Assembly: GCA_937127165.1 (NCBI GenBank)
Contig: CAKZLR010000051.1
Coordinates: forward strand, 1 to 53,473
DNA: 53,473 nt
Reading direction: 5' to 3'
Origin: an uncultured Candidatus Peregrinibacteria bacterium
GTDB taxonomy: Bacteria; Patescibacteriota; JACMRA01
The notes beneath the pieces are model-generated. The model ran no database searches, had not been told where the DNA came from, and saw only the letters and a program-made list of their open reading frames with translations. Below are positions 3,471 to 53,473 of the stretch, one piece after another; position 1 is the first letter of the stretch; each line of letters opens with the position of its first letter. The position numbers and the translations under genes were made by a program.

Positions 3471-5948
3471 CTAAATTTTCTCAAAATCCTCAGTCAATTT
3501 TTCTACATTGCTCTTTGTACCATAAACTAAAATTCCTAAGTATTTAATCTGTTCGGCAGTTTTTTGGAAATACTCAACACTTATTTCAGTATCGTGACTC
3601 ATAGCTTGCATTTCCTCGGTAAAGACTGTGACTAAGAGTTTTTCCTGTTCAGCTTGCCTTTTTAATCTTAGCAAATCCAGAGAATTTATCGACTTCTTAA
3701 TGACAATTGAAGGTTGGATGTTTATATCAATTTGCTCTCCGTCCTTAGTTTTAACTTTTTCTATTGTTAGTATGTTTTTTCTTTCACGTGCGATAAAGTT
3801 AGCAGTTAAGTGGGCAACTGTATTGTATTTTTGCCAATCGTTCATTTTGTTTTCATCTAAAAGCACAATATGAGCCACCATTGTTCGGTTAGACTTTCTT
3901 ATCGGATTATTTTCATTACGAACATGTGGAAAAGTGACACATTCTTTAATATGCTTACCAAGCAAGAATGACAAAAATCTTTCACTAGTGCCAAAACCAG
4001 CCATTGGTGGAGTACCAAGCTCCAAGGCTTTAACATAGTCTTCATCCATAAATTGAGCTTCCTCGTCTCCAGCATCTCTGGCGGCTTGTTGTTGTTCAAA
4101 TCTACCAAATTGGTCTATTGGATCATTTAACTCACTAAAACATTTACCCAATTCGGCAGTGCCAGCTACAATTTGCCATCTTTCGGTCAAATCCGGTCTG
4201 GGTGGGTGCCTTTTAGCTAATGGCTCTAACTCAACCGGAACTAAAGCCAGAAAAATGGGATTTTGAATATATGGTCTAGCTACTTTTTTGTAAATTTTAT
4301 CCATAACACCAGATATTGCTGTACCCGGTTCGATTTCTACCTCGTTATCTTTAGCAATTTGCAACAATTCCTCCAAAGATTTACCTTCAAAATCGACTTT
4401 ACCTTGAGAATAAAATCTGATAGCTTCGAAATATGGGATAATCGGCCAACCAAAGATATTAGCCTCTTCCGGTTTTAGCTCGATTTTAGACTTATTTTTT
4501 TTATCAGAAATATCTGGTTCCCAGACTTTATCTACAGTTGCTAGTCCCCAACCGTTTTTTAAGGCAGTTTCTAGGCTACACCATTCACCCCAGTTAATTT
4601 GGTGGCCATAATAATCTGTTTGGATCATTTCACCTAAAATTTCTTGGACAATTCTTTGATAAATCCGTTTAACCAATTTCATACCATCCGTATAGTCGGC
4701 ATATGCCCAATACCACTCAATCTGAGTATATTCTTGTAAGTGTTGGGGACTGGAGCCCTCGTTACGGAAGATACGACCAATTTCAAAAACTTTTTCAAAA
4801 CCTCCAGCAATCAATTTTTTGAGAGGTAATTCAAGTGAAATTCTAAGATAAACTTCCTGGTCTAATTCATTGTAAAAAGTAGTGAAGGGCCTAGCTTCAG
4901 CTCCACCTGGAATGTGTTCAAAAACTGGGCACTCAACTTCTAAGAAACCTTCTTTTTCCATTTCTTCTCGCCAAATTGACCAATATTTTTGTTTTAACCT
5001 TACCAAATCTCGTACTGACAAACCATTTGGATCTTTGGTGTTCATCTTAAAATCCACTACACGGTTGGTGTATCTTTCTTCAAAATTCTCATAATCTAGT
5101 TTTTCTGGCAGTGGTCGTAGACATTTAGTCAAAATGATAAAAGATTCAACAAACAAACTAGGTTCACCTCGCTGTGATTTGTCTAAATAACCACTAGCTT
5201 GAATATAGTCACCTTCATCGATTAGGGTTTTTAGGTCTTCAAAAGTCAAGGAATTTTGTAAAATCTTGTTAAGTTTTTTTTCTATTAAGTTGGGTCTGTT
5301 ATCAATTACATCTTTTTTAAAGATAAACTGAAAACCTTCTGGTAAACTTTCATCTTCTATGGTAGCAAAACCAATTTTACCGCTCAGTCTTTTAGATTTG
5401 ATTCTACCAGCTAGAACTACCCTTTGGTTTGGTTTTAAACTTATTTGCAATTCAGTCTCGTCTTGCGGATTTTTGTTTTTAAGTCCGAAAAAAGTATTCA
5501 AGTACTCTTCTCTAGTTTCCATAGAAACTTTGAGCAGGTTGGGGAAAAATTTTCTTACTTCGTTTAACTCACTCTCATCAAAATCTAAGATATCTCCAAT
5601 TTCTTCATCTTCTAGGTCTAAATCGACATCTTTAGACATCTGTCTAAGAAATAACCTTTTTTCTTGTTTTTCTATCAAACTACTAGGAAACAAGGCTTGA
5701 TCCAAAAAATGATACTGCATTTCCGGTTCGGGAAACTCGTTTATAAAATTATTCAAATCGTAATCATGAACAAAATTAAACCAAAAACTAACAAAACCTA
5801 AAGTAAAATCTCGCCGACTTTTGACTGCAAAAGGCTCGTGTCCTTTGGCTCGCAGTTTTTCCATTTTTTGGATTCGTAAACTTCTTTGAGAGTCAATTGA
5901 GGATAGTGAAATATTTTGACTGCCGCTTGAAGTACTTTTTTTTGACAT
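3471..5948 (-). CDS. lysS: Lysine--tRNA ligase (class II) with an N-terminal insertion and an extra C-terminal domain of about 140 aa
   Basis: OB-fold segment VVLAGRIKSKRLSGKIGFATIEDES. Class II motif 2 region FRNEGSSPQHLQEYTQIEWY. Motif 3 region GTPPMAGFGTSERFLSFLLG. At 825 aa it is about 300 aa longer than typical LysRS. Confidence 0.9.
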   Translation of the reverse strand: MSKKSTSSGSQNISLSSIDSQRSLRIQKMEKLRAKGHEPFAVKSRRDFTLGFVSFWFNFVHDYDLNNFINEFPEPEMQYHFLDQALFPSSLIEKQEKRLFLRQMSKDVDLDLEDEEIGDILDFDESELNEVRKFFPNLLKVSMETREEYLNTFFGLKNKNPQDETELQISLKPNQRVVLAGRIKSKRLSGKIGFATIEDESLPEGFQFIFKKDVIDNRPNLIEKKLNKILQNSLTFEDLKTLIDEGDYIQASGYLDKSQRGEPSLFVESFIILTKCLRPLPEKLDYENFEERYTNRVVDFKMNTKDPNGLSVRDLVRLKQKYWSIWREEMEKEGFLEVECPVFEHIPGGAEARPFTTFYNELDQEVYLRISLELPLKKLIAGGFEKVFEIGRIFRNEGSSPQHLQEYTQIEWYWAYADYTDGMKLVKRIYQRIVQEILGEMIQTDYYGHQINWGEWCSLETALKNGWGLATVDKVWEPDISDKKNKSKIELKPEEANIFGWPIIPYFEAIRFYSQGKVDFEGKSLEELLQIAKDNEVEIEPGTAISGVMDKIYKKVARPYIQNPIFLALVPVELEPLAKRHPPRPDLTERWQIVAGTAELGKCFSELNDPIDQFGRFEQQQAARDAGDEEAQFMDEDYVKALELGTPPMAGFGTSERFLSFLLGKHIKECVTFPHVRNENNPIRKSNRTMVAHIVLLDENKMNDWQKYNTVAHLTANFIARERKNILTIEKVKTKDGEQIDINIQPSIVIKKSINSLDLLRLKRQAEQEKLLVTVFTEEMQAMSHDTEISVEYFQKTAEQIKYLGILVYGTKSNVEKLTEDFEKI

Positions 5949-6136
5949 ACAAAATGTGTTTAGTCATAATCAACTTGGATTGTCAAATCCAATATTAAGT
6001 AGATTTGTTTGATGTTTTACTAAAAGTTTAAGTTTGTATAATTGCTAATCTTTGTCTGATAGGAGTTAAACCTTCTTATGGGTAGAAACTCTATTGTTCT
6101 TAAATTGTTCAATAAACTTACAAAAGAAAACCAAAT

Positions 6137-7450
6137 TTAGGTGGATTGTGCTTGTAGAGCTGTGTTTATTTCTTTGACTATTCTTACAGCATCTTCATTG
6201 TTTACATGAATATGAGTTGGCAGATTAATCACTCTTTTTTGTAAAAGTCTTTTGGCTGTTGGCAAGTCTTCCAGACGACAGTTAAACTTTGATAAATCAG
6301 TTTCTTTGTTAGCGAACAGATTTTGATACCAGATTCCTAAAAAAATACCCTCTTTCTTACAACGAGACAAAATTGAGTTATATAGGCTTGTATAATCTTC
6401 TTGGTCTTTTAACCACTCTAAATTAACAGGAAACCTTAGGTAACTAGCTTGTGGGTAGTATTTTAAATTTAACTCATCCGAGTAGATTTTGGCTATTTTT
6501 TTCCTATGTATTCTAAATTTCTCAAACTTTTTTAGTTGATTGAGGAGTAAAAAAGCCAACTTGTCGGAATATTTTTGACCAAAAAATTTGTCTGTTCCTA
6601 ACATTTCTTCATATGAATAAATATCCGGCACTATTTTTAATTTCATGATTAAAGACAATACTATTTTACCAACCCAAAAATGATATAAAGGTAGTATAAA
6701 TCCTGAGATTATCGTAAAAACCAAACTTTTAAGTTCCTTTTCGGGTTCCAAAGGTGGAAGTTTTTGATATTCTTGATTTAATCTTCGTTGCCATTCTGAG
6801 TTAGGTTTATTGATAATGACAGCTCCACCGAAAATTGAGGAAACTATTTTGTCGCGGCCAAAACTAAACATACTGGTTTCGCCCCAACTACCAGCCGGTT
6901 TACCGGCAAAAGTAGATCCTAAAGAGTGAGCACAGTCTTCAATTAAGACAATTTTATGTTGGTTACAAATTTGCTTGACTCTGTGCATATCAACCATTAT
7001 TCCAAAAGTGTGTTGCACAATCCAGGCTTTGGTTTGTGGAGTTATTTTGTCTTCTATTTTATCTAAATCAAAGTTAAAAGTTTGCGGTTCAATATCACAG
7101 ACTACTGGTTGATATCCTGCTTGAAGTACTGCATTTGGCACCACCACACACGAAAAACCTTGTATTAAAACTTGACTATTTTTGGGCAAATTTAGACTTT
7201 TAAGTATCAAATACAAAGCCGTTCTTCCGCTGTCGGTAAGGTAGATTTGGCAAGTATCTGTTAAATTAAAAAAATTCTTGAACCATTGCTTAACTTTTTC
7301 TTGAGAGTCTACGGTAATATTTTTTTGCAGCAAAATTTTAAAAGCCAACCAAGCATCATCCAATTCGGTATTGGGGCAAATTTCTGGGTTAATAAATTTA
7401 AATCTACCAAACACGACAAAACAAAATCTATACTTAAAGCTCTTTGTCAA
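6137..7450 (-). CDS. DegT/DnrJ/EryC1/StrS-family PLP-dependent aminotransferase-like protein
   Basis: Motifs DSGRTALYLILKSL, IVQHTFG, IEDCAHSLGS, and FSFGRDKIVSS (a Lys in the position expected for the PLP lysine). The start codon is non-ATG (TTG at 7450) and uncertain. Confidence 0.75.
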   Translation of the reverse strand: MTKSFKYRFCFVVFGRFKFINPEICPNTELDDAWLAFKILLQKNITVDSQEKVKQWFKNFFNLTDTCQIYLTDSGRTALYLILKSLNLPKNSQVLIQGFSCVVVPNAVLQAGYQPVVCDIEPQTFNFDLDKIEDKITPQTKAWIVQHTFGIMVDMHRVKQICNQHKIVLIEDCAHSLGSTFAGKPAGSWGETSMFSFGRDKIVSSIFGGAVIINKPNSEWQRRLNQEYQKLPPLEPEKELKSLVFTIISGFILPLYHFWVGKIVLSLIMKLKIVPDIYSYEEMLGTDKFFGQKYSDKLAFLLLNQLKKFEKFRIHRKKIAKIYSDELNLKYYPQASYLRFPVNLEWLKDQEDYTSLYNSILSRCKKEGIFLGIWYQNLFANKETDLSKFNCRLEDLPTAKRLLQKRVINLPTHIHVNNEDAVRIVKEINTALQAQST

Positions 7451-10499: not shown

Positions 10500-11039
10500 T
10501 TAACTACCACCAATAAGGAGTCTCTGAACTATCAAAGATACATCTAAAACTATTCTGAAAATGAGATATATTAATCCCATAATTATCAAAGCTATAACAG
10601 TATTTTTAAAAGTTTCTTTTGCTTGTGCACTAGTTACTTTGCCATCCTTATCAAGTATAGATGATCCAGCAGCCCATTGCCAGCCACTATAAATCAACAT
10701 TAAAACACCGATCCCAAAAGCAATGTAAATTGCATAATCAACAAAAGAGAAAATCAAATTACTTGCATCTTTAACATTTCCAGTCCCCTCTATACCTTCA
10801 AGACAAGGTCCAAAATCACAAGGATCCAATGTCGGAATGTTTCCGTTTACATCTTTTAACAAAATTGGCGCAATAAGGAAGAAAAAATTTGATGTATGTA
10901 ACAATTTTTCTTTGTGTATAATTACTTGCACTGATCCAACAGATAAAATAGGTATAAATAAGGCAATAACAGCACCTAAAATGATTGACCAGAGAATGAT
11001 TCTTTTTATATTTTTTTTTCTTTCTTCTTTGTTATACAT
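10500..11039 (-). CDS. Hypothetical membrane protein, possibly a TrbC/VirB2-like (T4SS-type) pilin
   Basis: 179 aa with an N-terminal TM, a Cys-containing middle region (DPCDFGPC), and two C-terminal TM helices flanking a short polar loop (IAFGIGVLMLIYSGWQWAAG...VIALIIMGLIYLIF). The family assignment is pattern-level only. Confidence 0.55.
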   Translation of the reverse strand: MYNKEERKKNIKRIILWSIILGAVIALFIPILSVGSVQVIIHKEKLLHTSNFFFLIAPILLKDVNGNIPTLDPCDFGPCLEGIEGTGNVKDASNLIFSFVDYAIYIAFGIGVLMLIYSGWQWAAGSSILDKDGKVTSAQAKETFKNTVIALIIMGLIYLIFRIVLDVSLIVQRLLIGGS

Positions 11040-11233
11040 TTTTTAAAAATGTAATTTTTTTACTTTTACTTAAAAAGTAAGTGTTCAGTGATTGTATTAC
11101 AGGTTGATTTCTTTGTCAAATATAAAACTATTAGAAGAACATAATCATTTAATTACGATTTTTTAAAACTGAACTGAGTTATATTAATTTATCAACTATT
11201 TTTAACTAATATCAATTTGGCATATATTGAATT

Positions 11234-11297
11234 ATTATTTTACTTATTATTTTACTTATTTGTATTACTTATTCTTTTTGTATTACTTATTCTTTTT
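11234..11297. repeat. Short tandem direct repeats in an AT-rich intergenic region
   Basis: Perfect 12-nt unit attattttactt x2 (11234-11257), then perfect 18-nt unit gtattacttattcttttt x2 (11262-11297). All four copies share the core TTACTTAT. Confidence 0.9.
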
Positions 11298-11489
11298 AAG
11301 ATAAGAACAATCAATTAGGATTTAATAGTTACTTTATAAATAATATTGACAGAAATATCTATATTAATTATTAATATTATATAATATTTATTTATATATA
11401 TAATATAATTCATATTTATTTAATATTATTAACAGATTAACAGAAATATTTATTTAGTTAAACTAATAGCTTGGTTAAGTAAATAGGTT

Positions 11490-20472: not shown

Positions 20473-21072
20473 ATGATCGGCACCAATCAAATATATGAGT
20501 TATATTTCATTCTTAATCCAGAATTATCTGCTGAGCAAATAGATACCCAGATTTCTAAAATCTCTAAACTTGTAAAAGATGAAATAGGTGGAGAAAATAT
20601 AGAAATAGAAAAACAAGGTTTAAAAAGATTAGCTTATAGAGTCAAAAAACATTACAGTGGGTCTTATGTATTAATGAATTTTGAGCTAGAACTGGAAAAT
20701 TGTAAAAAAATTGGTAGTTTGGAGAAAAAATTAAATATAGAAAAAGAGGTTCTGCGATATATAATTCTTAATCAAACTGAATTTCTTATTCAAAAATCAA
20801 AAGAAAAACCTTCAGCCACGGAAATCAAGAGTCATAATGAATTAAATAAAAAAGCTAAGAGACCTAAAGACAGAAAATGTATAGTTAAACATATGGGTTT
20901 AAGAGTAATAGATTACAAAGATGTGGATTTCTTGCAACAGTTTGTGTCTCCATATGCTAAGATTTTCCACAGGGATAAAACCGGTACCGGTGCAAAGTTT
21001 CAAAGAAAAATAGCTAAAGCAGTAAAAAGAGCCAGACATATGGCCTTAATGCCTTTTACTCCTCAGGAGTAA
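20473..21072 (+). CDS. rpsF: Fused ribosomal proteins S6 (N-terminal) and S18 (C-terminal)
   Basis: The N-terminal ~95 aa YELYFILNPELSAEQIDTQISKI...GLKRLAYRVKKHYSGSYVLMNFE is S6. A basic linker follows. The C-terminal CIVKHMGLRVIDYKDVDFLQQFVSPYAKIFHRDKTGTGAKFQRKIAKAVKRARHMALMPFT is S18. It is one uninterrupted ORF. Confidence 0.85.
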   Translation: MIGTNQIYELYFILNPELSAEQIDTQISKISKLVKDEIGGENIEIEKQGLKRLAYRVKKHYSGSYVLMNFELELENCKKIGSLEKKLNIEKEVLRYIILNQTEFLIQKSKEKPSATEIKSHNELNKKAKRPKDRKCIVKHMGLRVIDYKDVDFLQQFVSPYAKIFHRDKTGTGAKFQRKIAKAVKRARHMALMPFTPQE

Positions 21073-33404: not shown

Positions 33405-34223
33405 TTAATCAAACCACTTAAGATTTTCTAAGATGTACTCTAATACCCAATTTTTGTTTATAATCACTTTTTTAACTCCTACTTTAGCCATTTTACGACC
33501 ACAGTCTTTACATGACCACCAATGTCCAGTTAGATAACAAGTAGAATCTTTTAATTGCTCTAATTTTTCTAGATTTGCAGGATTAGCTATTGCTTTGTCG
33601 AAATCTTGTTCGTTGTTAACCCCAAAAAAATCGTACAAAGCTTTTGCTTCCGAATGGTTGTCTTCATGGCTGCCCGGGTTTAGTTCATACCCAGTACCAC
33701 TAGGGATGGTAATAAATTGTTTGAGAGCTTCTCGCACATCCAGACCACTTCCTTCCAACACTTTTGGTAAGTTTTGTTTAATTTTTTGAATTTTAGAATC
33801 TTCGAGATTGTACATACTTTGAAGCATAGACCACCACTTTTGGTCTGTGGGAGTTTGCATAATATGTTTAGAAACATCCTGAGCGGTGGCGGTTATAACT
33901 TGATTGTCTTTGACAAACATTGAACCAGTTAGAAAGCAACCTTTGTATCCAAATTTAGTTCTTTGTTCAGTTATTAGTTTTTGTAATACTTCGAAGTATG
34001 GACTGACAGAATATTCTAACTCAAATTTACCCCAGAATGGTTGATAAATCCAAAATTCAAGATTTTGACGATTTTCCATTGTTTGGACTGTTTTATGCAA
34101 AAATAAACATTGTTGCAATTCAGGGATTTTGTTGGTTTGAATAAGTGTTTCGACTTTATAACTTAGAATCACTAATTTTAGCCCTTTGATATTTTTTTGG
34201 GATATAGTGTATGTTGGTTGCAT
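33405..34223 (-). CDS. CMP/dCMP deaminase zinc-binding-fold protein with N-terminal extension
   Basis: HSEAKAL corresponds to H[AC]E. WSCKDCGRKMAKVGVKKVII corresponds to PCxxC plus the G[IV]..V.Y tail. GCFLTGSMFVKDNQVITATAQD is the beta strand before the active site. The spacing between the HxE and CxxC motifs is unusually long. Start at ATG 34223; the ORF track uses GTG 34256. Confidence 0.55.
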   Translation of the reverse strand: MQPTYTISQKNIKGLKLVILSYKVETLIQTNKIPELQQCLFLHKTVQTMENRQNLEFWIYQPFWGKFELEYSVSPYFEVLQKLITEQRTKFGYKGCFLTGSMFVKDNQVITATAQDVSKHIMQTPTDQKWWSMLQSMYNLEDSKIQKIKQNLPKVLEGSGLDVREALKQFITIPSGTGYELNPGSHEDNHSEAKALYDFFGVNNEQDFDKAIANPANLEKLEQLKDSTCYLTGHWWSCKDCGRKMAKVGVKKVIINKNWVLEYILENLKWFD

Positions 34224-35283
34224 AATTTTTCGTTTTAAAAGACAAACCAATATCACTGAGTATTTTTACCCAAATGTTTTTTGCTGATATGATTTTGAGT
34301 TCTAAATTTTAGTTAGATTTAACGGTGCAAGTGATATCCATAAGTTTAGAATAAAGTAAAATTAAGTCAAGAGGGTAATTTTTAAATTTTGTCATAAAAC
34401 AAGGTAGCTATTTTTTTCTTTGAGGTAAAGTTGATAAAACGAATAGGTTACAAAAGTAGTACCAGTCATTTCTAAAGGTTCTTCCAAAACAACCCGCATA
34501 AAAATTTTACAGGTAGCAAATAACCGTCGGTTTGTCTAGTTTTATAAAAGGTACCCCTAATAGCAACAAAAAACCAAAAAGAGTAAGTTCTCAGGAACCT
34601 GTATCTCACATTTTCCCAAGTCTTATAAGTAAAGAATAAAAGTAGGAATGATAATAAAAAATGTGGCTCCTTCGATGGTTATATAAATAAGCAAATTAAA
34701 AAACAAAAACAGAACCAAAAATTACCATTTTCCCAAAAATCTTTTTATTTAAAGTAGTAATATGTATGAAGACCAAAAAATCAAAAAATAAAAGTTTTAA
34801 CTCTTAATAGACAGTTGAGATATTTGACTCCAAATCTTAAAAACCGACTAATAACCGACTAATATTGGGAAACAGTAAAATGTAAGTTTATTAAAATCAA
34901 GTCAAAAGCTAAAAAACCATAACAACCTGTTTTTAGCAAAAAAGTTTAGAGACATCCATATAAACCAGACCAAAATTAAGGCACAATGTTTTTGACAAAA
35001 AACAGACTAGCTAAAAATATTAATCGTTGTCAAACTTCTTACAAGTGAGACTAAGTTGTAAACTTGGTTCACTAAAGCCTTGTCCTTCTTTATTTATTGT
35101 TTGGAAGTTTTGTATGGTTTTTTACTTGATAAGCTTAGGTCTTTATCCGACTTTAGTAAAATTAATAAGCCGAATTTAAGTAAAGTACAACTTTTTGTGG
35201 GTCTGTTTGTGAATATTGTTTTTTTAAATTTTAATTTTTTGGTTTTTAGAAATTTGCAGATATTTTAGATTTTGTATTCTAAC

Positions 35284-36577: not shown

Positions 36578-38719
36578 TCAACATTCATCAACTTTAATTC
36601 TTTTAATCGCCAAAAGTTCAAACGGGCTAGGAGATTTAGTTTTACCTGATAGATTGACTCGAAGTGGCCAGAGGTAGGATCCTGTATCCCTATTACCCTC
36701 TTTTAGCCAATTTTTAATTCTATTTTCCCACTCATTTATTAAGTTTGTTATCTGTTCTTTGATTTGTCTTTCTAGTTCAATAATTCTATTGATTTTAGGG
36801 TTAAAATTTGGAGTAAAAACCGGGGTCAGAGCAATGTATTCTTTAGTAGTTTGGTATAATCTGTCCTGTAAAATTTTTAGTTCTGGTTTTTGAGTTGTTA
36901 TAAATTTTAGAATCTCTTCAAGATTAGCTTGACTTTCCTCGATAGTTATTTTTTTCCATCTAAGATCTTCTAGATTTGGCGGTTTGTAATACAAAATACA
37001 ATCCGATTCACTACCAATTTCACTTAACACGGTAATTCGGTTTTTGTCTAAAATATAAGCTAAATAATGTTCGATAATCTTCTCAGTTGGTTCAAAACAG
37101 GGTAGATGGTTAGAAACACAAAAGTTTTGCCATAAAGAAAATTTAATAAATCTGTTTTGCTCTATAACAGAGGCTAAATCAACCCAGTCATAAAACCATT
37201 CATTCATACTATCTGGTAGTTTTTGGGGTTTTATGTCAGTAATCGCCAAAGGATATACATAAAAAAACATCTGTTTACCAGTCCAACTCTCGCCATCGTG
37301 ATACACAAAAGGTTTGTTTATGAAAATATTTTCTAAACTCATGATTTTGTCTTTTTCTAAAACTAATTGATCCAAAGACTCTTCTTTTACTTCTCTTATT
37401 AAAGAGTCTATGGGGTCACCTTCTCTACCTCCACCAAGTGGGTAATAAAGCCCGTCTCCAGGCATTCTTTCATCGTATGTCATATAGACCTTCTGCTCAT
37501 CGAAATCAACCAAATAAACATAATCACCAATTCTAGCTTTGTTGGTTTTATCTTGAATTAGACGGTTTTTATCAGATAAAAATACAAATTCCTTCAAAGT
37601 TAACATTTTGATATACTCACGATTAAACCAATTAAGTTTTTCTAAACTAAAGCGGGCAGGGGCTTTGGATAATTTAGAAACATCAAACTCTTTAGAGATA
37701 TTATGAAGCAATTTTTCAATTCTTCGCTCTTGGTTAAGTGTTTGAAAATCTTGTGGTTCTAGATATAATTCTTGTTCGGTTCCAGGATTCCACCCTAAAA
37801 AAGCTAGATAATTGAGAATAGCTTCGGGTAAATAACCTTTGTCTAAATAATCTTGCATGTTAACATTACCGTCTCTCTTGCTAAGTTTTTTGGTGCCGGT
37901 TTCTGCTAGTATAAAAGGAATATGCAGATATTTAGGCCCACATCCCCAATAATCCAAAAACATGGTTTGATGTTTGGCTATAGAAGGATACCATTCCTGA
38001 GCTCTAAAAACCAAAGTTGTTTCCATTAAATAATCATCTACAAGATGAGCTAAATGATAGGTTGGAAAACCGTCTGACTTGAGAATTATGAAGTCTTCTT
38101 CTAAGTTCAAATCAAATTCACTTTGCCCCATTAGCTCATCTAGACACCTAATTTTATCATCTCTTTGAATACGGTATCGTAAAACTGGTTTTAAAGGATC
38201 GTTTAGCCCGCTTTGTACAGATTGAAATAGCAAATCCTCACCACTTTTTTCTAGACTTATTTTGAAATAATTAATCGGTTTTTTGTTGATCTTTTTGATT
38301 TCTTGCAACTCGTTTTTTTCTTCTTCGGTTAAGTATGACCAATAAGCTAATCTTTTGTCTATCAGTCTTTGGCTGTGTTCGTGATATAAGGGTAACCTTT
38401 GAGATTGAATATAAGGACCATACTGACCAGTTTGATAAACTCCATAAAAATCATCTGGACCAGAAATTTCATCGTATTTTTTGTAAGAATTGACCAAAGT
38501 TATGCCTTCATCAGGCAAAAGATATAACTGGCTTAAACTTTCTAATAATTTTCTAGCCGAGTCTTTCTGAAGTCTAGTGCGGTCGGTATCCTCTAATCGG
38601 AGGTAGTAGGTTCCCTGTTCTTTAAGAGCAAAAAGTTTGGTGAACAAAATTTGTCTGGTCGTACCAAGATGTAGATAACCTGTGGGTGATGGAGCTTGTC
38701 GGATGCGAAAGTTGGCCAT
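36578..38719 (-). CDS. gltX: Glutamate--tRNA ligase with an inserted Nudix-like domain
   Basis: HIGH region PSPTGYLHLG and KMSKS region KLSKRDG. The C-terminal LWPLRVNLSGKTKSPSPFELL is typical of bacterial GluRS. An inserted segment of about 140 aa contains PLGGGREGDPIDSLIREVKEESL. Start at ATG 38719 (MANFRIRQAPSPTG); the ORF track uses TTG 38758. Confidence 0.9.
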   Translation of the reverse strand: MANFRIRQAPSPTGYLHLGTTRQILFTKLFALKEQGTYYLRLEDTDRTRLQKDSARKLLESLSQLYLLPDEGITLVNSYKKYDEISGPDDFYGVYQTGQYGPYIQSQRLPLYHEHSQRLIDKRLAYWSYLTEEEKNELQEIKKINKKPINYFKISLEKSGEDLLFQSVQSGLNDPLKPVLRYRIQRDDKIRCLDELMGQSEFDLNLEEDFIILKSDGFPTYHLAHLVDDYLMETTLVFRAQEWYPSIAKHQTMFLDYWGCGPKYLHIPFILAETGTKKLSKRDGNVNMQDYLDKGYLPEAILNYLAFLGWNPGTEQELYLEPQDFQTLNQERRIEKLLHNISKEFDVSKLSKAPARFSLEKLNWFNREYIKMLTLKEFVFLSDKNRLIQDKTNKARIGDYVYLVDFDEQKVYMTYDERMPGDGLYYPLGGGREGDPIDSLIREVKEESLDQLVLEKDKIMSLENIFINKPFVYHDGESWTGKQMFFYVYPLAITDIKPQKLPDSMNEWFYDWVDLASVIEQNRFIKFSLWQNFCVSNHLPCFEPTEKIIEHYLAYILDKNRITVLSEIGSESDCILYYKPPNLEDLRWKKITIEESQANLEEILKFITTQKPELKILQDRLYQTTKEYIALTPVFTPNFNPKINRIIELERQIKEQITNLINEWENRIKNWLKEGNRDTGSYLWPLRVNLSGKTKSPSPFELLAIKRIKVDEC

Positions 38720-38826
38720 AAATCGACTATGAAAAAGCTTTGAAAAAACTGTTGTCAAGATTAATCATAATTACTTGTTTTATAAGTTATAAACTTAATT
38801 TTTGCAAAAGGTAGAATTACACCGAA

Positions 38827-45001: not shown

Positions 45002-45434
45002 TTTAATCATCATTCGGATTTTCTTTGACTTGTGTTTCAAGCATGTGCGTGGCTGGTAGTCGGTCTAGTGTTTGGTTTTGGTGTTTTCTGGTTAGATTTA
45101 TTGAAAAAATTCAGATGTATAGGTCAGACTAAAAAATATTTAATCGAGAAATATGGGAATAGAGAGGGATTTTGCTATTCGGAAAGTGCCTCGATAAGAT
45201 GACTGGTTTGAGGGGAACTTAATTAGAAATTGTAGATGCAGTTTTTTCAGAAGGATAACCTCTTTGTTCATAAGTGTTTATTTACTCACATGACGGAATA
45301 AAAATTATTGTTCTATAAGTTTTGGATTTTGTAACTTATCTAAAATTTGTCACAAACTTTCTCAGCTTGACCGTGAGAGTATTTTGCGACAAAAGAAAAG
45401 GTTTCTTCAAAAGCTTAGTCTAAACTTTATATTT

Positions 45435-46406
45435 ATGGATAATAGTACTAAGAAATTGAAAAAAATTCACCTAAGACCAAAGACCATAGAAGTTCTAGAA
45501 AAATTAACTGGACTTAAAATTTATACAAAGAATGTTTGGAATATAGACAAAATGGAGTTAGGCAATCTGCTACAGCAGGGTAGAATAAATGCTTTAATGT
45601 ATCTGCAAAGATACCAGCAAGGACAAAAACTAAGTATTTTTGAAGAACAAAATTTGTTTAAAGCCCTTGTAGAGATTCAGCAGAAATTATCTTTAAACCA
45701 AATTCCGATACATATTGAATGTTATGATGTTTCCCATTTTGGTGGCAAATATGTCTATGGTTCAATGGTCGTATTTATTGAAGGTCGAAGTGTCAAAAAG
45801 CTTTATAGATTGTTTAAAACAGCTGAAAAGAACGATGATTTTGCTAATTTGCGGGAAGTTCTTCTAAGAAGATTTAAAAAATGGGAAGAAAATCAACACC
45901 AACCGCCTACAATTAAATTGAATTTATCTACCAAACCTATTCTAAAAAAACCTTGGGAACTACCAAATTTAATTATTATCGATGGTGGGAAAGGTCAGTT
46001 ATCGTCTGCTAATCAAGTGTTGCAAGAATTTAAGCAGAAATATTCTAGTATTACTACCCAGATTTGCGCACTGGCTAAAGGAAAAGAAGAGATATTTTTG
46101 CTAGACAAAGACGAGTCAGTTTTGTTTGAAGGACAGGCTAAGTTTTTATTACAAAGAATTAGAGATGAAGCTCATCGTTTTGGTATCACTAACAGTCGCA
46201 AAGCTATAGTTCGCCAGTCGTCTAAATCCAGTTTAGATTCAATCAAAGGAATTGGAAAGGTAACTAAAAATAAATTGTTAACTATTTTTGGATCCATAGA
46301 AAACTTGATTAATCATTATTATTTTGATCCCCAAACTTTACAGCAAATCTTAACCAAGACTCAATTTAAAAATCTTGAGAGTTGGATTAGAAACGGGGAA
46401 ATTTAA
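45435..46406 (+). CDS. uvrC: UvrC-like protein consisting only of the C-terminal half (RNase-H-like 5'-incision domain plus HhH); the GIY-YIG and UvrB-binding regions are absent
   Basis: Motifs IECYDVSHFGG, NDDFANLREVLLRRFKK, PNLIIIDGGKGQL, LLQRIRDEAHRFGITNSRK, LDSIKGIGKVTKNKLL. Nothing resembling a GIY-YIG module lies in the ORF or the 380 nt upstream. An alternative TTG start is at 45384. Confidence 0.8.
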   Translation: MDNSTKKLKKIHLRPKTIEVLEKLTGLKIYTKNVWNIDKMELGNLLQQGRINALMYLQRYQQGQKLSIFEEQNLFKALVEIQQKLSLNQIPIHIECYDVSHFGGKYVYGSMVVFIEGRSVKKLYRLFKTAEKNDDFANLREVLLRRFKKWEENQHQPPTIKLNLSTKPILKKPWELPNLIIIDGGKGQLSSANQVLQEFKQKYSSITTQICALAKGKEEIFLLDKDESVLFEGQAKFLLQRIRDEAHRFGITNSRKAIVRQSSKSSLDSIKGIGKVTKNKLLTIFGSIENLINHYYFDPQTLQQILTKTQFKNLESWIRNGEI

Positions 46407-48765: not shown

Positions 48766-49788
48766 TCAAAGTAAACCTTGTGTATCTTCAAAAATATCAT
48801 TTTGAGCTTTTTGTATATGATATTTCTGAGTTGCAGGTATATTTTTGGGGGTATTATGTTTTGCGGCTATAACCTTGCAGATTAATTGAGCTACTTCTAT
48901 ACCTATCCCTTCTATACCTAATCCTGCCAAAAATTTATAGTCTTCTTTTTTTCTAGAATCGTCTATGGATTTTTTAAGATTGTCTACAGATTTTGGTCCA
49001 AAGCCTTCTAACTGAGAAATTTTAGAATAGGGCAGTTTGTAGAGATCTGGAATGTCTTGAATACCATATTCACTGATAAATTTTTGTATGTGCTTATCTG
49101 ATAAACCAACGATATTAGCTATGTCTCTTTGGCAAAAATAACTCAATCTACCAAGTATTTGAGCTGAACAATTTTGTTGATTTGGACAGATTAAATCAAT
49201 CTTCGTAGGGCTGGTAATTAGTTTTGTACCACAAGCCGGGCAAACCTGAGGGGCTAAAAATTCTTTATTAGTTTCGGTATCTATTCTCAAATTTACTAAC
49301 ACATTTGTAATCTCCGGGATAATATCCCCAGCTTTGCGAATAACTACTGTGTCATTTTGTCTTAACCCTTTAACTAAAAATTCTTTGTAATTATGCAGTG
49401 TAGCTCTTTTGATCACGGTACCAGCCAGCAAAACAGGTTCTAATTCTGCCACTGGTGTTAGTTTGCCTGTACGACCGACTTGCCAGGTGATATCTAAACA
49501 TTTTGTAGTTATTTCTTCTGCGGGAAATTTTACGGCACACCAACCTCTGGGGGTTTTGCCAACAACTCCAAGTTGAGCAGCTAAATTATTATCATTGAGT
49601 TTGACGACCACTCCGTCAATATGGTATTTCATACTATCCCTTTTTTTTTCTAAATCTTGAACCCGTTCCCAAACTTCTTCTGCCGAATCAGCAGTCATAA
49701 TTTCGTTGTTTGTATCAAACCCTAATTGTCTCAAAAATTCCAACTCTTCAAGATGACTGGCGAAATTGGATGATTCAAATTTTTCCAT
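48766..49788 (-). CDS. ligA: NAD-dependent DNA ligase LigA fragment (truncated gene, split gene or pseudogene)
   Basis: Present: HIDGVVVKLND (motif IV), RGWCAVKFPAEE (motif V), OB fold WQVGRTGKLTPVAELEPV, Zn finger CPACG...CPNQQNC, and a partial HhH region. Absent: domain Ia, the KxDG adenylation motif and BRCT. Only 48 nt separate its ATG from the upstream gene's stop. Confidence 0.85.
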   Translation of the reverse strand: MEKFESSNFASHLEELEFLRQLGFDTNNEIMTADSAEEVWERVQDLEKKRDSMKYHIDGVVVKLNDNNLAAQLGVVGKTPRGWCAVKFPAEEITTKCLDITWQVGRTGKLTPVAELEPVLLAGTVIKRATLHNYKEFLVKGLRQNDTVVIRKAGDIIPEITNVLVNLRIDTETNKEFLAPQVCPACGTKLITSPTKIDLICPNQQNCSAQILGRLSYFCQRDIANIVGLSDKHIQKFISEYGIQDIPDLYKLPYSKISQLEGFGPKSVDNLKKSIDDSRKKEDYKFLAGLGIEGIGIEVAQLICKVIAAKHNTPKNIPATQKYHIQKAQNDIFEDTQGLL

Positions 49789-51253: not shown

Positions 51254-52090
51254 TCACAAAGCAATTTGCATCTTACCTAGACTAGGTTGGGGTTTGTATT
51301 GGCTTTTGAGTTGAGTAAAGATTTCTAGCACGAGACTTTCATCTTTTTGAACTGCTCGCTCAAAAGAGTTTTCAGGAAGGTTTAACAACACTGGCTGGTG
51401 TTTATTTTTTCTTTTAGACAACTCGTTAGCTTGAGTAAAATGGTTTTCGTAAATATGGACATTAGATCCTGAATAGTGTAAATATCCCGGCTTAACACCT
51501 AGTTTTTGAGCTAAAATCATCTGTAACAAAGCAAATCCGGCTACATCGTGAGGCAAACCTAGCATAACATCTTGGGAGCGGAACAAAAAATGTAGATGCA
51601 ATTCGCCGCCGACAATGTTAACCGTCCATATAGGTACACAAGGCACATTTTTTTTAGGTGGACTATCCAGACCATCACTGTTAGGATCCCAAGTCACCAC
51701 CACTCCTTGCCGACTCGAAGGATCTTTCTGAAGTAAATTAATTAGGCCAGCGATTTGATCTCTACCAAAAAACGATCGCCAACGATAGCCGTAGGAAGTT
51801 TCTACTGTGTTGGAACCTGTCTCATCCATAAAATCATCCCAGATTCGGCTAAATTTTTGAAAGAAATCCAAATTTTTATCACCTTGCAAATACCAAATAA
51901 TCTCGGCTACGAACAATTTGATAGGAATCTTGCGAAGGGTTAAAAGAGGAAATTCTTCACTTGGTCGAAATGATTGAGCCACTCCGGTTATAGTTTTTGT
52001 GTAGTAACCAGTCCGTCGGTTAAATTCTAAAACACCTTCTGTCATTATTTTTTTGACAATTTGGCGATACCATTGGTCAAATTTAGTCAT
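51254..52090 (-). CDS. Thymidylate synthase (ThyA) family enzyme with Asp at the pyrimidine-specificity position; predicted cytosine-nucleotide C5-(hydroxy)methylase
   Basis: TS motifs NRRTG, FPLLTLRK, AEIIWYLQGD, IWDDF, YGYRWR, DQI..L...L..DPSSRQ, catalytic VPCV, FRSQDVMLGLPHDVAGFALL, HIYENH. The Asn of the canonical GLPFN is Asp (codon GAT at 51545-51547). Start at ATG 52090 (MTKFDQWY); the ORF-track extension to 52225 overlaps the upstream gene. Confidence 0.85.
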   Translation of the reverse strand: MTKFDQWYRQIVKKIMTEGVLEFNRRTGYYTKTITGVAQSFRPSEEFPLLTLRKIPIKLFVAEIIWYLQGDKNLDFFQKFSRIWDDFMDETGSNTVETSYGYRWRSFFGRDQIAGLINLLQKDPSSRQGVVVTWDPNSDGLDSPPKKNVPCVPIWTVNIVGGELHLHFLFRSQDVMLGLPHDVAGFALLQMILAQKLGVKPGYLHYSGSNVHIYENHFTQANELSKRKNKHQPVLLNLPENSFERAVQKDESLVLEIFTQLKSQYKPQPSLGKMQIAL

Positions 52091-52100
52091 AGTGAAGGTT

Positions 52101-52523
52101 TTAGAGTGTAAAAATAACATCTGGTTCCAAATTGGTTTGATTGGTGCCGTTGTAGTAGTTGCCTGCTGGACTGGGGAAAAGATGTAATTGTTGAGCGGAA
52201 CTAAAAATATGTTCAATTTCCTCAAAATTATCAGTTTTTTTAAGCAACTCTACACCTTGTTTGGTGAGTTTGGTTTTCCACACCAAAGGTCCACAAAAAC
52301 CCGCATCAATAATTGCTGAGATAACTTGTTCAATATAGAGACTTTGGTCTTTGCCTTGCCTTAAAACACGACTGCGATTGGCTAGGTTACCGTAGACATT
52401 CTCAAATCTAAACACTAATTTAGTTTGAAAATAAACTAGCCAATTTATTTCGTCAAAATGTAAGAGCCTAATTTTTTCTAGGTCAAAAGTAGGTTTGCTG
52501 GTGATTTTAATAAAAACAGGCAT
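52101..52523 (-). CDS. Hypothetical protein immediately upstream of the ThyA-family gene (likely co-transcribed)
   Basis: 140 aa from ATG 52523 (MPVFIKITSK...). The stop lies 10 nt before the ThyA-family start. No recognisable DHFR, dUTPase or kinase motif. Confidence 0.5.
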   Translation of the reverse strand: MPVFIKITSKPTFDLEKIRLLHFDEINWLVYFQTKLVFRFENVYGNLANRSRVLRQGKDQSLYIEQVISAIIDAGFCGPLVWKTKLTKQGVELLKKTDNFEEIEHIFSSAQQLHLFPSPAGNYYNGTNQTNLEPDVIFTL

Positions 52524-52789: not shown

Positions 52790-53473
52790 TTAGAATAATG
52801 GAACCCAGTGTATAGTTGCGTGAATTCCTCGATGTCCAGGACTAGGATCAGAATATACAGGATTATGGCGAATCACAACCCTATATGGAGTACCCTGTCG
52901 TACAGGTAATGTCATTTGAGCATGTCTGTTTATCAGATAATGGCAAGAAATCGCATTCATCAGAATAGCACTACCACTAGGATTATGACCAGAAAAGAAA
53001 TAAAATTCAGCATCACCTTTTGAATCACCATATACATGAGGAGCTTCTATCCGAACAACCACGAACCCATCGGTTGATGGTATGCTAGCACTGTTTGTAG
53101 CATTGTATATGTCTAGAGTATCCCCCGGTTGCGGGTTATTAGTTCTATCATATGTTGCTAAAAGCTGCCAATTTCCTATTCTACCTGATGATTGATTAGC
53201 TGCGGTGTTAGTAATTATATATGTACCATTATTATTAGTTATAGAAATGCCATTACCGGCACTAATACCATTTCTTGTTATTGAAGTAACATGACCGTTG
53301 TCAACACTTAGGCCAGTAACAACTGGTATAGTTCCTGGTGTAGTAGAGCTGGATGTACTTATAGTTGCATGGGTAATTGTAACATCACCCGAGCCTATTA
53401 ACCTGTTATTTGCATTTCCACTTAAATTGATCTGATTACCAGCTACTAAGCTGCCTCTCTGTAAGATTCTATC
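52790..53473 (-). CDS. Fibre/adhesin-like protein, C-terminal part (5' end outside the window)
   Basis: My hand translation shows the frame stays open from the window edge: DRILQRGSLVAGNQINLSGNANNRLIGSGDVTITHATISTSSSTTPGTIPVVTGLSVDNGHVTSITRNGISAGNGISITNNNGTYIITNTAANQ...GFVVVRIEAPHVYG...HWVPLF*. The Gly/Asn/Thr/Ser-rich beta-strand repeats resemble tail-fibre or adhesin shafts, followed by a globular C-terminal domain. The ORF track lists only the part from GTG 53062. Confidence 0.6.
   Translation of the reverse strand, partial: DRILQRGSLVAGNQINLSGNANNRLIGSGDVTITHATISTSSSTTPGTIPVVTGLSVDNGHVTSITRNGISAGNGISITNNNGTYIITNTAANQSSGRIGNWQLLATYDRTNNPQPGDTLDIYNATNSASIPSTDGFVVVRIEAPHVYGDSKGDAEFYFFSGHNPSGSAILMNAISCHYLINRHAQMTLPVRQGTPYRVVIRHNPVYSDPSPGHRGIHATIHWVPLF

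Follow-up and report, generated by a model that had tools for sequence, protein, structure and literature searches.

Does a gene that is treated as thyA in bacteria of the Candidate Phyla Radiation (CPR) make thymidylate from dUMP, or does its product act on a cytosine nucleotide? The question arises near the end of a contig of 53,473 nucleotides from an uncultured Candidatus Peregrinibacteria bacterium (CAKZLR010000051.1 in assembly GCA_937127165.1), the whole of which we call the window. There, a gene of the thymidylate synthase (TS) family encodes Asp in place of the Asn that determines base specificity, and an earlier note, made from the letters alone, had proposed that the enzyme modifies a cytosine nucleotide. 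Based on its signature residues and its relatives, we predict that the enzyme is a dCMP C5-methyltransferase, which for the chemistry alone we regard as probable.

Fold, active site and clade of the enzyme

The maximal open reading frame (ORF) at 51254-52225 on the reverse strand has 323 aa. We took the ATG at 52090 as the real start because every close homologue starts at the same Met and aligns over 100% of the resulting 278-aa protein. The protein matches Pfam PF00303 (Thymidylat_synt; E=1.6e-53) and solved thymidylate synthases (best E 1.7e-38). Its AlphaFold model (mean pLDDT 94.7; 40-sequence alignment as input) matches solved TS structures over its full length in Foldseek, with TM 0.78-0.86, and 1njc (L. 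casei TS N229D / E. coli TS N177D, the engineered dCMP methylases) is among these matches. The full-length homology claimed in the earlier note is borne out, and every motif that it quoted is present (NRRTG, AEIIWYLQGD, YGYRWR, DPSSRQ, VPCV, FRSQD, GLPHDVA, HIYENH and a C-terminal QIAL). All general TS residues are found, namely the catalytic Cys in P-C, E58, Y94, R21, R166, S167, D169 (Asp174 in the query), H207 and Y209, and they are invariant in the homologue alignment; here and below, unprefixed positions follow E. coli ThyA, for which we used a sequence identical to PDB 1aob. The query also shares W80 and R126 with canonical ThyA, as well as the fold (TM ~0.8), a dimer-type architecture, linkage to dihydrofolate reductase (DHFR) genes in its family, and a C-terminal tail of the same length (YKPQPSLGKMQIAL, with the end GKMQIAL, compared with YDPHPGIKAPVAI in E. 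coli).

Unlike canonical ThyA, the query carries seven active-site changes (N177D, F176H, H147V, Q165F, W83F, R127Q and an Asn at the L143 equivalent) and a 5-residue insertion before the catalytic Cys; the alignment near this insertion is uncertain, so the L143-equivalent assignment is somewhat uncertain as well. Asn177, His147 and Gln165 of ThyA thereby become Asp182, Val152 and Phe170. We take H147 and Q165 to be members of the uracil-O4/Asn177 network in TS structures. HMMER with three solved thymidylate synthases aligns the query segment 'glphdva' on 'gvpfnia', and in MAFFT Asp182 likewise falls on N177. Asp182 is residue 227 of the maximal ORF, exactly the residue and codon at which the earlier note had seen the Asp, and the misalignment that it had named as a danger to its reading was not seen. 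The Val that it had noticed instead of His after the catalytic Cys is also there (Cys151-Val152).

The Asp at position 177 is a family trait of the whole clade. This was established in a signature alignment of 270 sequences plus references (120 of them close homologues, the other 150 the top representatives of clusters at 50% identity), in which 232 Asp-type sequences were compared with 33 Asn-type sequences. Position 83 is Phe in 227 of the 232 Asp-type sequences and Trp in 28 of the 33 Asn-type ones. Position 147 is Pro, Val, Leu or Ile in 226/232 and His in 33/33, and position 127 is Gln or His in 208/232 and Arg in 33/33. Position 165 is mostly hydrophobic in the Asp-type group and Gln (17) or Met (14) in the 33 Asn-type sequences, and position 176 is His or Tyr in the former and mostly Phe or Tyr in the latter. 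Three residues before the catalytic Cys, Asn occupies 223 of 235 Asp-type rows (a count that includes the query and the three Asp-type phage references) and Leu 32 of 33 Asn-type rows. Both groups have R21, E58, W80, Y94, R126, C146, R166, S167, D169, H207 and Y209 in common, with D169 kept in 232/232 Asp-type sequences. At species level, we collected the loci of the 80 best relatives from a scan of one genome per species, and all 80 encode Asp at 177, Asn at Cys -3, a residue other than His (Val or Pro) next to the Cys and a hydrophobic one at 165; the changes W83F and R127Q/H accompany the Asp there as well.

Phylogeny, one of the checks named in the earlier note, places the query with Asp-type phage enzymes: in crude trees, made by neighbour-joining only, the CPR and phage-like Asp-type sequences are monophyletic in 80/100 bootstraps, and CPR sequences group with the Asn-type in 1/100. 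BLASTP scores of the query are 175 bits with Mallos, 169 with PaMx28, 128 with E. coli ThyA and 37 (23% identity) with T4 dCMP hydroxymethylase, whose reference sequence was verified at 100% identity. The best phage matches are PaMx28, PaMx74, AAT-1, ZQG1 and several Xanthomonas phages including Mallos (33-38% identity over >90% of the protein). The TS genes of Mallos and PaMx28 both encode GLPYDV, NVPCP, IRSSD and Phe83, and both adjoin a dCMP-deaminase gene and a DHFR gene.

PaMx28, PaMx74 and Xp12 belong to the genus Pamexvirus, and the DNA of these phages is resistant at G/C-containing restriction sites; the DHFR of AXL1, from the same genus, is functional, and the phage TS cluster was long read as canonical (PMC9206674). 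A phage preprint reports that the Xp12 TS homologue and five of seven Asp-type homologues from metaviromes make 5-methyldeoxycytidine (5mdC) in vivo, and that C is wholly replaced by 5-methylcytosine (5mC) in Xp12 and PaMx74 (bioRxiv 10.1101/2024.12.05.627091). In the same work, a deaminase encoded beside a homologous metavirome TS selectively deaminates 5-methyl-dCTP, so that the phage needs no dUMP-dependent TS; T4 dNMP kinase was co-expressed in the 5mdC assays to move non-canonical pyrimidine monophosphates into the dNTP pool (bioRxiv 10.1101/2024.12.05.627091). The query has Asp177, Phe83, a hydrophobic residue at 165 and N-V-P-C in common with these Xp12/Pamexvirus enzymes, lacks His147 as they do, and falls in the same Asp-type clade. 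In contrast to the phage genes, the CPR gene is cellular, chromosomal and widespread, its activity is a prediction, and its presumed purpose is thymidylate supply rather than restriction evasion. The CPR enzyme has a hydrophobic C-terminus (..IAL), whereas the phage enzymes end in ..(V/I)(V/I)E.

In single mutants, N177D switches TS preference to dCMP (PMC8670742; PMC13326640). The engineered L. casei N229D and E. coli N177D enzymes have, like the query, an Asp on a TS-like scaffold that keeps the reductive-methylation machinery, but as point mutants they lack the co-evolved changes of the natural family at 147, 165, 176, 83, 127 and 143. The most economical reading is that dCMP is reductively methylated to 5-methyl-dCMP, with dihydrofolate as the second product. 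Cys151 would attack C6 of the pyrimidine, Asp182 would hydrogen-bond and protonate cytosine N3/N4, and methylene-tetrahydrofolate would give the carbon and then the hydride. A methyl rather than a hydroxymethyl product is predicted because the TS tail and W80, E58 and Y94 are kept, the L143 position is not acidic and DHFR is linked, and a deoxyribose-type substrate because S167 and R126 (Ser172 and Arg127 in the query), H207 and Y209 are kept. The proposal of a cytosine-nucleotide substrate has gained support from the Asp, from the clade-wide losses of H147 and Q165 and from a clade that includes verified Xp12-type dCMP methylases; the specificity itself is still a prediction.

Linked genes and a predicted route to thymidylate

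In three relatives with Pfam annotation, the TS gene is followed by a DHFR gene, a Dcd/dUTPase-family gene and a dCMP_cyt_deam_1 gene, and genes for thymidylate kinase (Tmk) and dUTPase (Dut) often lie upstream. With seeds from these three, we searched by tblastn within 10 kb of the TS gene in the 80 species loci and found a deaminase in 57, DHFR in 53, a Dcd-like gene in 47, Tmk in 19 and Dut in 10. Among the 50 well-flanked loci (>=3 kb on both sides of the TS gene), DHFR lies <=3 kb away in 39, a deaminase in 28, and at least one of DHFR, deaminase and Dcd-like gene in 43. Linkage to a short RibD_C-like DHFR and to a deaminase of the cytidine deaminase (CDA) fold is another trait in common with the Pamexvirus genes, as is a linked gene resembling a nucleotide pyrophosphatase; in CPR this partner has a dUTPase/Dcd fold, whereas the phage one is MazG-like, and a Tmk gene is often linked as well.

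The short DHFR beside the CPR gene matches both Pfam DHFR_1 and RibD_C (e.g. 10907-11389 in CPR locus L003; 5338-5784 in Mallos, L007, and 5853-6308 in PaMx28, L008). A profile of the CPR DHFRs matches those of Mallos and PaMx28 with E=3e-15 and 3e-13. Because the CPR DHFR is of the same type as that of the Xp12-group phages, the data suggest that TS and DHFR were transferred together, as one module, between CPR bacteria and phages.

The Dcd-like partner scores above the NCBIfam dCTP-deaminase cut-off (98.6 bits, cut-off 92.8). It has Pro where solved dCTP deaminases have the catalytic Glu (..LMIPILN compared with ..ITLELSN) in 47/47 cases, and we exclude a true dCTP deaminase on this basis. 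Archaeal Dcd-like enzymes without this Glu are dUTPases. Since several of the CPR clusters already contain a canonical Dut, we suggest instead a putative dCTP pyrophosphatase that would supply dCMP. A phmmer search of the PDB with a TS-linked deaminase gave no match.

The roles of the partner genes, like the substrate and product of the enzyme, we infer from homology and signature residues, and together they outline a route. The Glu-less dUTPase/Dcd-fold protein would convert dCTP to dCMP, which the Asp-type enzyme would methylate, while DHFR would recycle the folate. The CDA-fold deaminase would then convert 5-methyl-dCMP (or the triphosphate) to dTMP (or dTTP), and thymidylate kinase would carry the product on from dTMP to dTDP. 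The earlier note had offered dCMP -> 5-Me-dCMP -> dTMP as an alternative, and it has become the best-supported reading; for the chemistry and this role in thymidylate supply together, our belief slightly outweighs our doubt.

The closest relatives (58-71% identity) often have no standard cluster. Two genes of the window may take part in the predicted route. Directly upstream of the TS gene, the TAA stop of a 140-aa ORF lies 10 nt before the ATG at 52090; its product belongs to a family of 46 members, several of them on contigs equal in length to contigs with close TS relatives. In the loci of four further species, none with an ordinary Dcd-like partner, the gene likewise directly precedes the TS gene. 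Pfam gave nothing for this ORF, even at E<=10, and an HMM of the Dcd-like partners did not match it. By hhalign the protein is related to the TS-linked Dcd-like family with a probability of 55% (E=1e-4; controls 0.1%), over a region that covers the PRSS..R and IDAG(F/Y).G motifs, and tblastn links it to the Dcd/dUTPase superfamily at E=0.04. Its AlphaFold model (pLDDT 94.8) has dCTP deaminases and dUTPases as best Foldseek matches, which are weak (E=3e-3, TM 0.4-0.47). We assign it with moderate confidence to the dUTPase/Dcd superfamily as a divergent member; it is possible that it acts as a (d)CTP/dUTP pyrophosphatase and takes the place of the Dcd-like protein in the route.

The second gene is the deaminase that the earlier note had pointed to at 33405-34223. 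The full ORF at this place encodes a CDA-fold protein of the family that neighbours Asp-type TS genes in CPR genomes. It matches the deaminase partner in locus L005 (BLASTP 1e-16), an HMM from TS-linked deaminases (E=6.6e-20) and, by hhalign, the same deaminases with a probability of 98.9% (E=2e-17, 115 columns). Pfam returned nothing for it, even at E<=10, and it has just 5 close homologues. It is a candidate 5-methyl-dCMP (or dCMP) deaminase and would fill the corresponding step of the route.

Several observations weigh against this reading. The deaminase gene lies 17 kb from the TS gene, and no DHFR, Tmk, Dut or standard-type Dcd-like gene was found in the 53-kb window. The inner structure of the Asp-type clade is unresolved in our trees, and the CPR enzymes differ from the verified phage ones in overall identity (~35%), at position 176 (His, Ala, Phe or Ser in CPR, Tyr in phages) and in the loss of R127 (Gln or His). 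The query exceeds the cut-off of TIGR03284, the NCBIfam thymidylate synthase equivalog (136.2 bits, cut-off 108.35), and is under the cut-offs of all seven other equivalog models (e.g. NF002497, 158 against 327). A cluster of TS, DHFR, a Dcd/dUTPase-like protein, a dCMP deaminase and Tmk would equally fit a canonical dUMP pathway, and the Glu-less Dcd-like protein could be an archaeal-type dUTPase that supplies dUMP.

It is nevertheless unlikely, in our judgement, that the enzyme is an ordinary TS converting dUMP to dTMP, in which the Asp, perhaps protonated and helped by His181, would stand in for Asn while the neighbours supply dUMP. The fold, the catalytic residues and the C-terminal tail are all TS-like and the TIGR03284 cut-off is passed, but mutagenesis and every characterised natural Asp-type homologue favour cytosine, and H147 and Q165 are replaced in nearly all members of the clade. 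The query also falls beside the Xp12-type dCMP methylases and apart from Asn-type TS. The DHFR, dCMP-deaminase-family, dUTPase-superfamily and Tmk genes make a textbook dTMP module; however, the look-alike phage cluster was itself once read as canonical, before the Xp12 enzyme was shown to make 5mdC and a metavirome deaminase proved 5mC-selective. An ordinary TS would also agree with the lack of a second TS or ThyX in the DNA examined, where tblastn with T. maritima ThyX (verified sequence) found nothing in the window or the 80 loci, a search of low power that covered ~20 kb per genome.

A dCMP methylase could also feed DNA directly. The product would then be incorporated, with 5mC replacing much or all of the C in CPR DNA. 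In this scheme the Glu-less Dcd-like protein would remove dCTP as a dCTPase, and some of the 5-methyl-dC pool would pass through the deaminase to thymidine. The CPR module (Asp-type TS, DHFR, CDA-fold deaminase and putative NTP pyrophosphatase) does parallel the Pamexvirus set of TS, DHFR, cd and MazG-like pyrophosphohydrolase, and Xp12 and PaMx74 fully swap C for 5mC. Yet the clusters showed no dNMP kinase dedicated to 5-methyl-dCMP, whereas the phage assays co-expressed that of T4, and the linked kinase is Tmk, not a dCMP kinase. We found no report of global 5mC in CPR DNA in the open-access literature, and a cell with 5mC in place of all its genomic C would have no precedent; we consider this fate of the product improbable. 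The related proposal, that some or many CPR bacteria are the first cellular organisms to methylate cytosine before replication, at the nucleotide level, with replacement of much or all chromosomal C as its extreme form, we rate as slightly more improbable still.

The least credible alternative, and a very improbable one, is that the enzyme hydroxymethylates a cytosine nucleotide or modifies its C5 in another way (like T4 gp42, MilA or the 5-hydroxy-dCMP synthases) and supplies a building block of modified DNA or of a secondary metabolite: T4 dCMP hydroxymethylase, MilA and BcmA belong to the TS superfamily and carry the specificity Asp, and the L143 equivalent of the query is polar (Asn), not Leu, but the same Asn occurs in the Pamexvirus-type enzymes that make 5mdC, DHFR linkage is strong, similarity to the T4 enzyme is slight, and no glycosyltransferase or antibiotic-cluster genes lie near the TS gene in the window. 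The hydroxymethylase and CMP-specific options of the earlier note fall on their diagnostic residues. Enzymes that form a methyl product have a bulky hydrophobic residue at the L143 position, whereas hydroxymethylases of the T4 type and MilA have an acidic one (Asp in both T4 and MilA), which lets in or activates water; 5-hydroxy-dCMP synthases of the RB69/DLP3 type have D169N (PMC13326640). The folate-closing C-terminal tail of TS is absent in the T4 enzyme and different in MilA, hydroxymethylases release tetrahydrofolate and need no DHFR, and in MilA and BcmA an Ala/Lys pair (Ala176/Lys133), tied to ribose preference, replaces the S167 and R126 of deoxyribose-specific enzymes (PMC5175136). 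We rejected a T4-type dCMP hydroxymethylase on the non-acidic Asn148 and the retained tail, a MilA/BcmA-type CMP hydroxymethylase on Ser172/Arg127 in place of the Ala/Lys pair, and a 5-hydroxy-dCMP synthase on the retained D169.

Chromosomal setting and other features of the window

The Asp-type TS gene is a chromosomal gene of CPR/Patescibacteria and neither a phage trait nor part of an antibiotic cluster, the two settings in which the earlier note had framed it. We reject that framing because relatives of the protein are encoded in at least 462 species-level genomes (one genome per species), whereas CPR-type Asp-TS patterns were found in just 3 loci among the 2.9 million contigs of IMG/VR, and because the gene stands among housekeeping genes. 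The window (~32% G+C) encodes FtsA, RecA, RuvB, ribosomal proteins, tRNA synthetases, Tgt, RRF, a LigA-like ligase and type-IV-pilin-like proteins; on this content we reject a prophage or phage origin. No tRNA or Rfam families were detected in the window. Named homologues of the protein come from Paceibacterota, Taylorbacteria and Colwellbacteria, and the 80 best loci are labelled, for example, Uhrbacteria, Gracilibacteria, Peribacteria, Altimarinota, Doudnabacteria, Dojkabacteria, Nomurabacteria, Falkowbacteria, 'Saccharibacteria' or 'Patescibacteria group'. A few are labelled 'Gammaproteobacteria' (third-party assemblies of metagenome-assembled genomes), which we suspect to be a default label rather than a placement.

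The three IMG/VR contigs classed as viral (L093, L094 and L095) carry CPR-type Asp-TS of 40-51% identity, adjoining Dut, or else Dcd-like and deaminase genes; they could come from CPR phages or be fragments of CPR genomes that were wrongly classed. Like two independent assemblies (L001 and L002), the window stops ~1.38 kb upstream of the TS gene, and because all three stop at about the same point we suggest that a repeat breaks the assemblies there. A partial reading frame at this end is listed with the other features in Table 1.

Table 1. Positions of the TS-family gene, its key codons, candidate partner genes and the partial ORF at the window end
Feature	Position	Strand	Evidence
Asp-type thymidylate-synthase-family gene, 278 aa, predicted dCMP C5-methyltransferase	51254..52090	-	Pfam, PDB matches, AlphaFold, Foldseek
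Codon of Asp182, equivalent of E. coli ThyA Asn177 (base-specificity residue); His181 before it replaces Phe176	51545..51547	-	HMMER and MAFFT alignments
Codon of catalytic Cys151 in N148-V-P-C-V152; Asn at the L143 equivalent, Val for His147	51638..51640	-	Alignments
Divergent dUTPase/dCTP-deaminase-fold protein (moderate confidence), 140 aa, without the deaminase Glu	52101..52523	-	hhalign, Foldseek, synteny
CDA-fold zinc deaminase (H-S-E ... S-C-K-D-C), called as 272 aa from Met12	33405..34256	-	BLASTP, HMM, hhalign
Partial ORF, Thr/Ser/Asn/Gly-rich, probably a surface-exposed protein	52790-53473, running off the window end	-	Sequence
Dcd-like genes in CPR loci	L003 11386-12039; L004 12329-12985; L005 11410-12072; 47 of loci L013-L092		tblastn, NCBIfam

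Other genes of the window have unusual architectures. A single 199-aa ORF at 20473-21072 (+) is a fusion of ribosomal proteins S6 and S18, with the S6 domain at residues 8-99 and the S18 domain at 145-193, and the fusion recurs in a related CPR contig (L009 15973-16569). The NAD-ligase-like gene at 48766-49788 (-) encodes 340 aa with adenylation and OB domains and a weak zinc-finger match, apparently without the HhH and BRCT parts of full-length LigA. Two aminoacyl-tRNA synthetases are unusually long: a class II enzyme of the Asp/Lys/Asn type with 825 aa and a C-terminal DUF2000 domain, at 3471-5948 (-), and a GluRS/GlnRS-type enzyme with 726 aa, at 36578-38758 (-), in which ~330 residues between the catalytic and anticodon-binding domains have no assignment. 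At 45384-46406 (+), a stand-alone protein of ~323-340 aa has the UvrC RNase H-like endonuclease domain as its sole Pfam match and is not a full-length UvrC.

Consequences of the proposed cytosine route to thymidine

The kind of enzyme and the route are known from phages, and what would be new is a conserved chromosomal module across a bacterial superphylum. We found no description of Asp-type TS in CPR in the open-access literature, though an earlier description elsewhere is possible; the gene appears as thyA in papers on CPR, and cellular homologues go unmentioned in the phage preprint (bioRxiv 10.1101/2024.12.05.627091).

If the prediction is true, a gene called thyA across a bacterial superphylum does not make thymidylate from dUMP, and the TIGR03284 name would be wrong for the Asp-type family. 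The Dcd-like partner would be annotated as a dCTP deaminase, yet it cannot be one and may be a dCTP or dUTP pyrophosphatase. Cellular 5-methyl-dC-nucleotide deaminases might serve as tools for methylation sequencing, and the question of unusual amounts of 5mC in CPR DNA would be raised. Above all, a route to thymidine through cytosine nucleotides, so far proposed only for Xp12-type phages, would be a third cellular way to thymidylate, beside ThyA and ThyX, and would change how CPR metabolism is reconstructed, the folate and dUTP economy and the dependence on hosts among the points affected.

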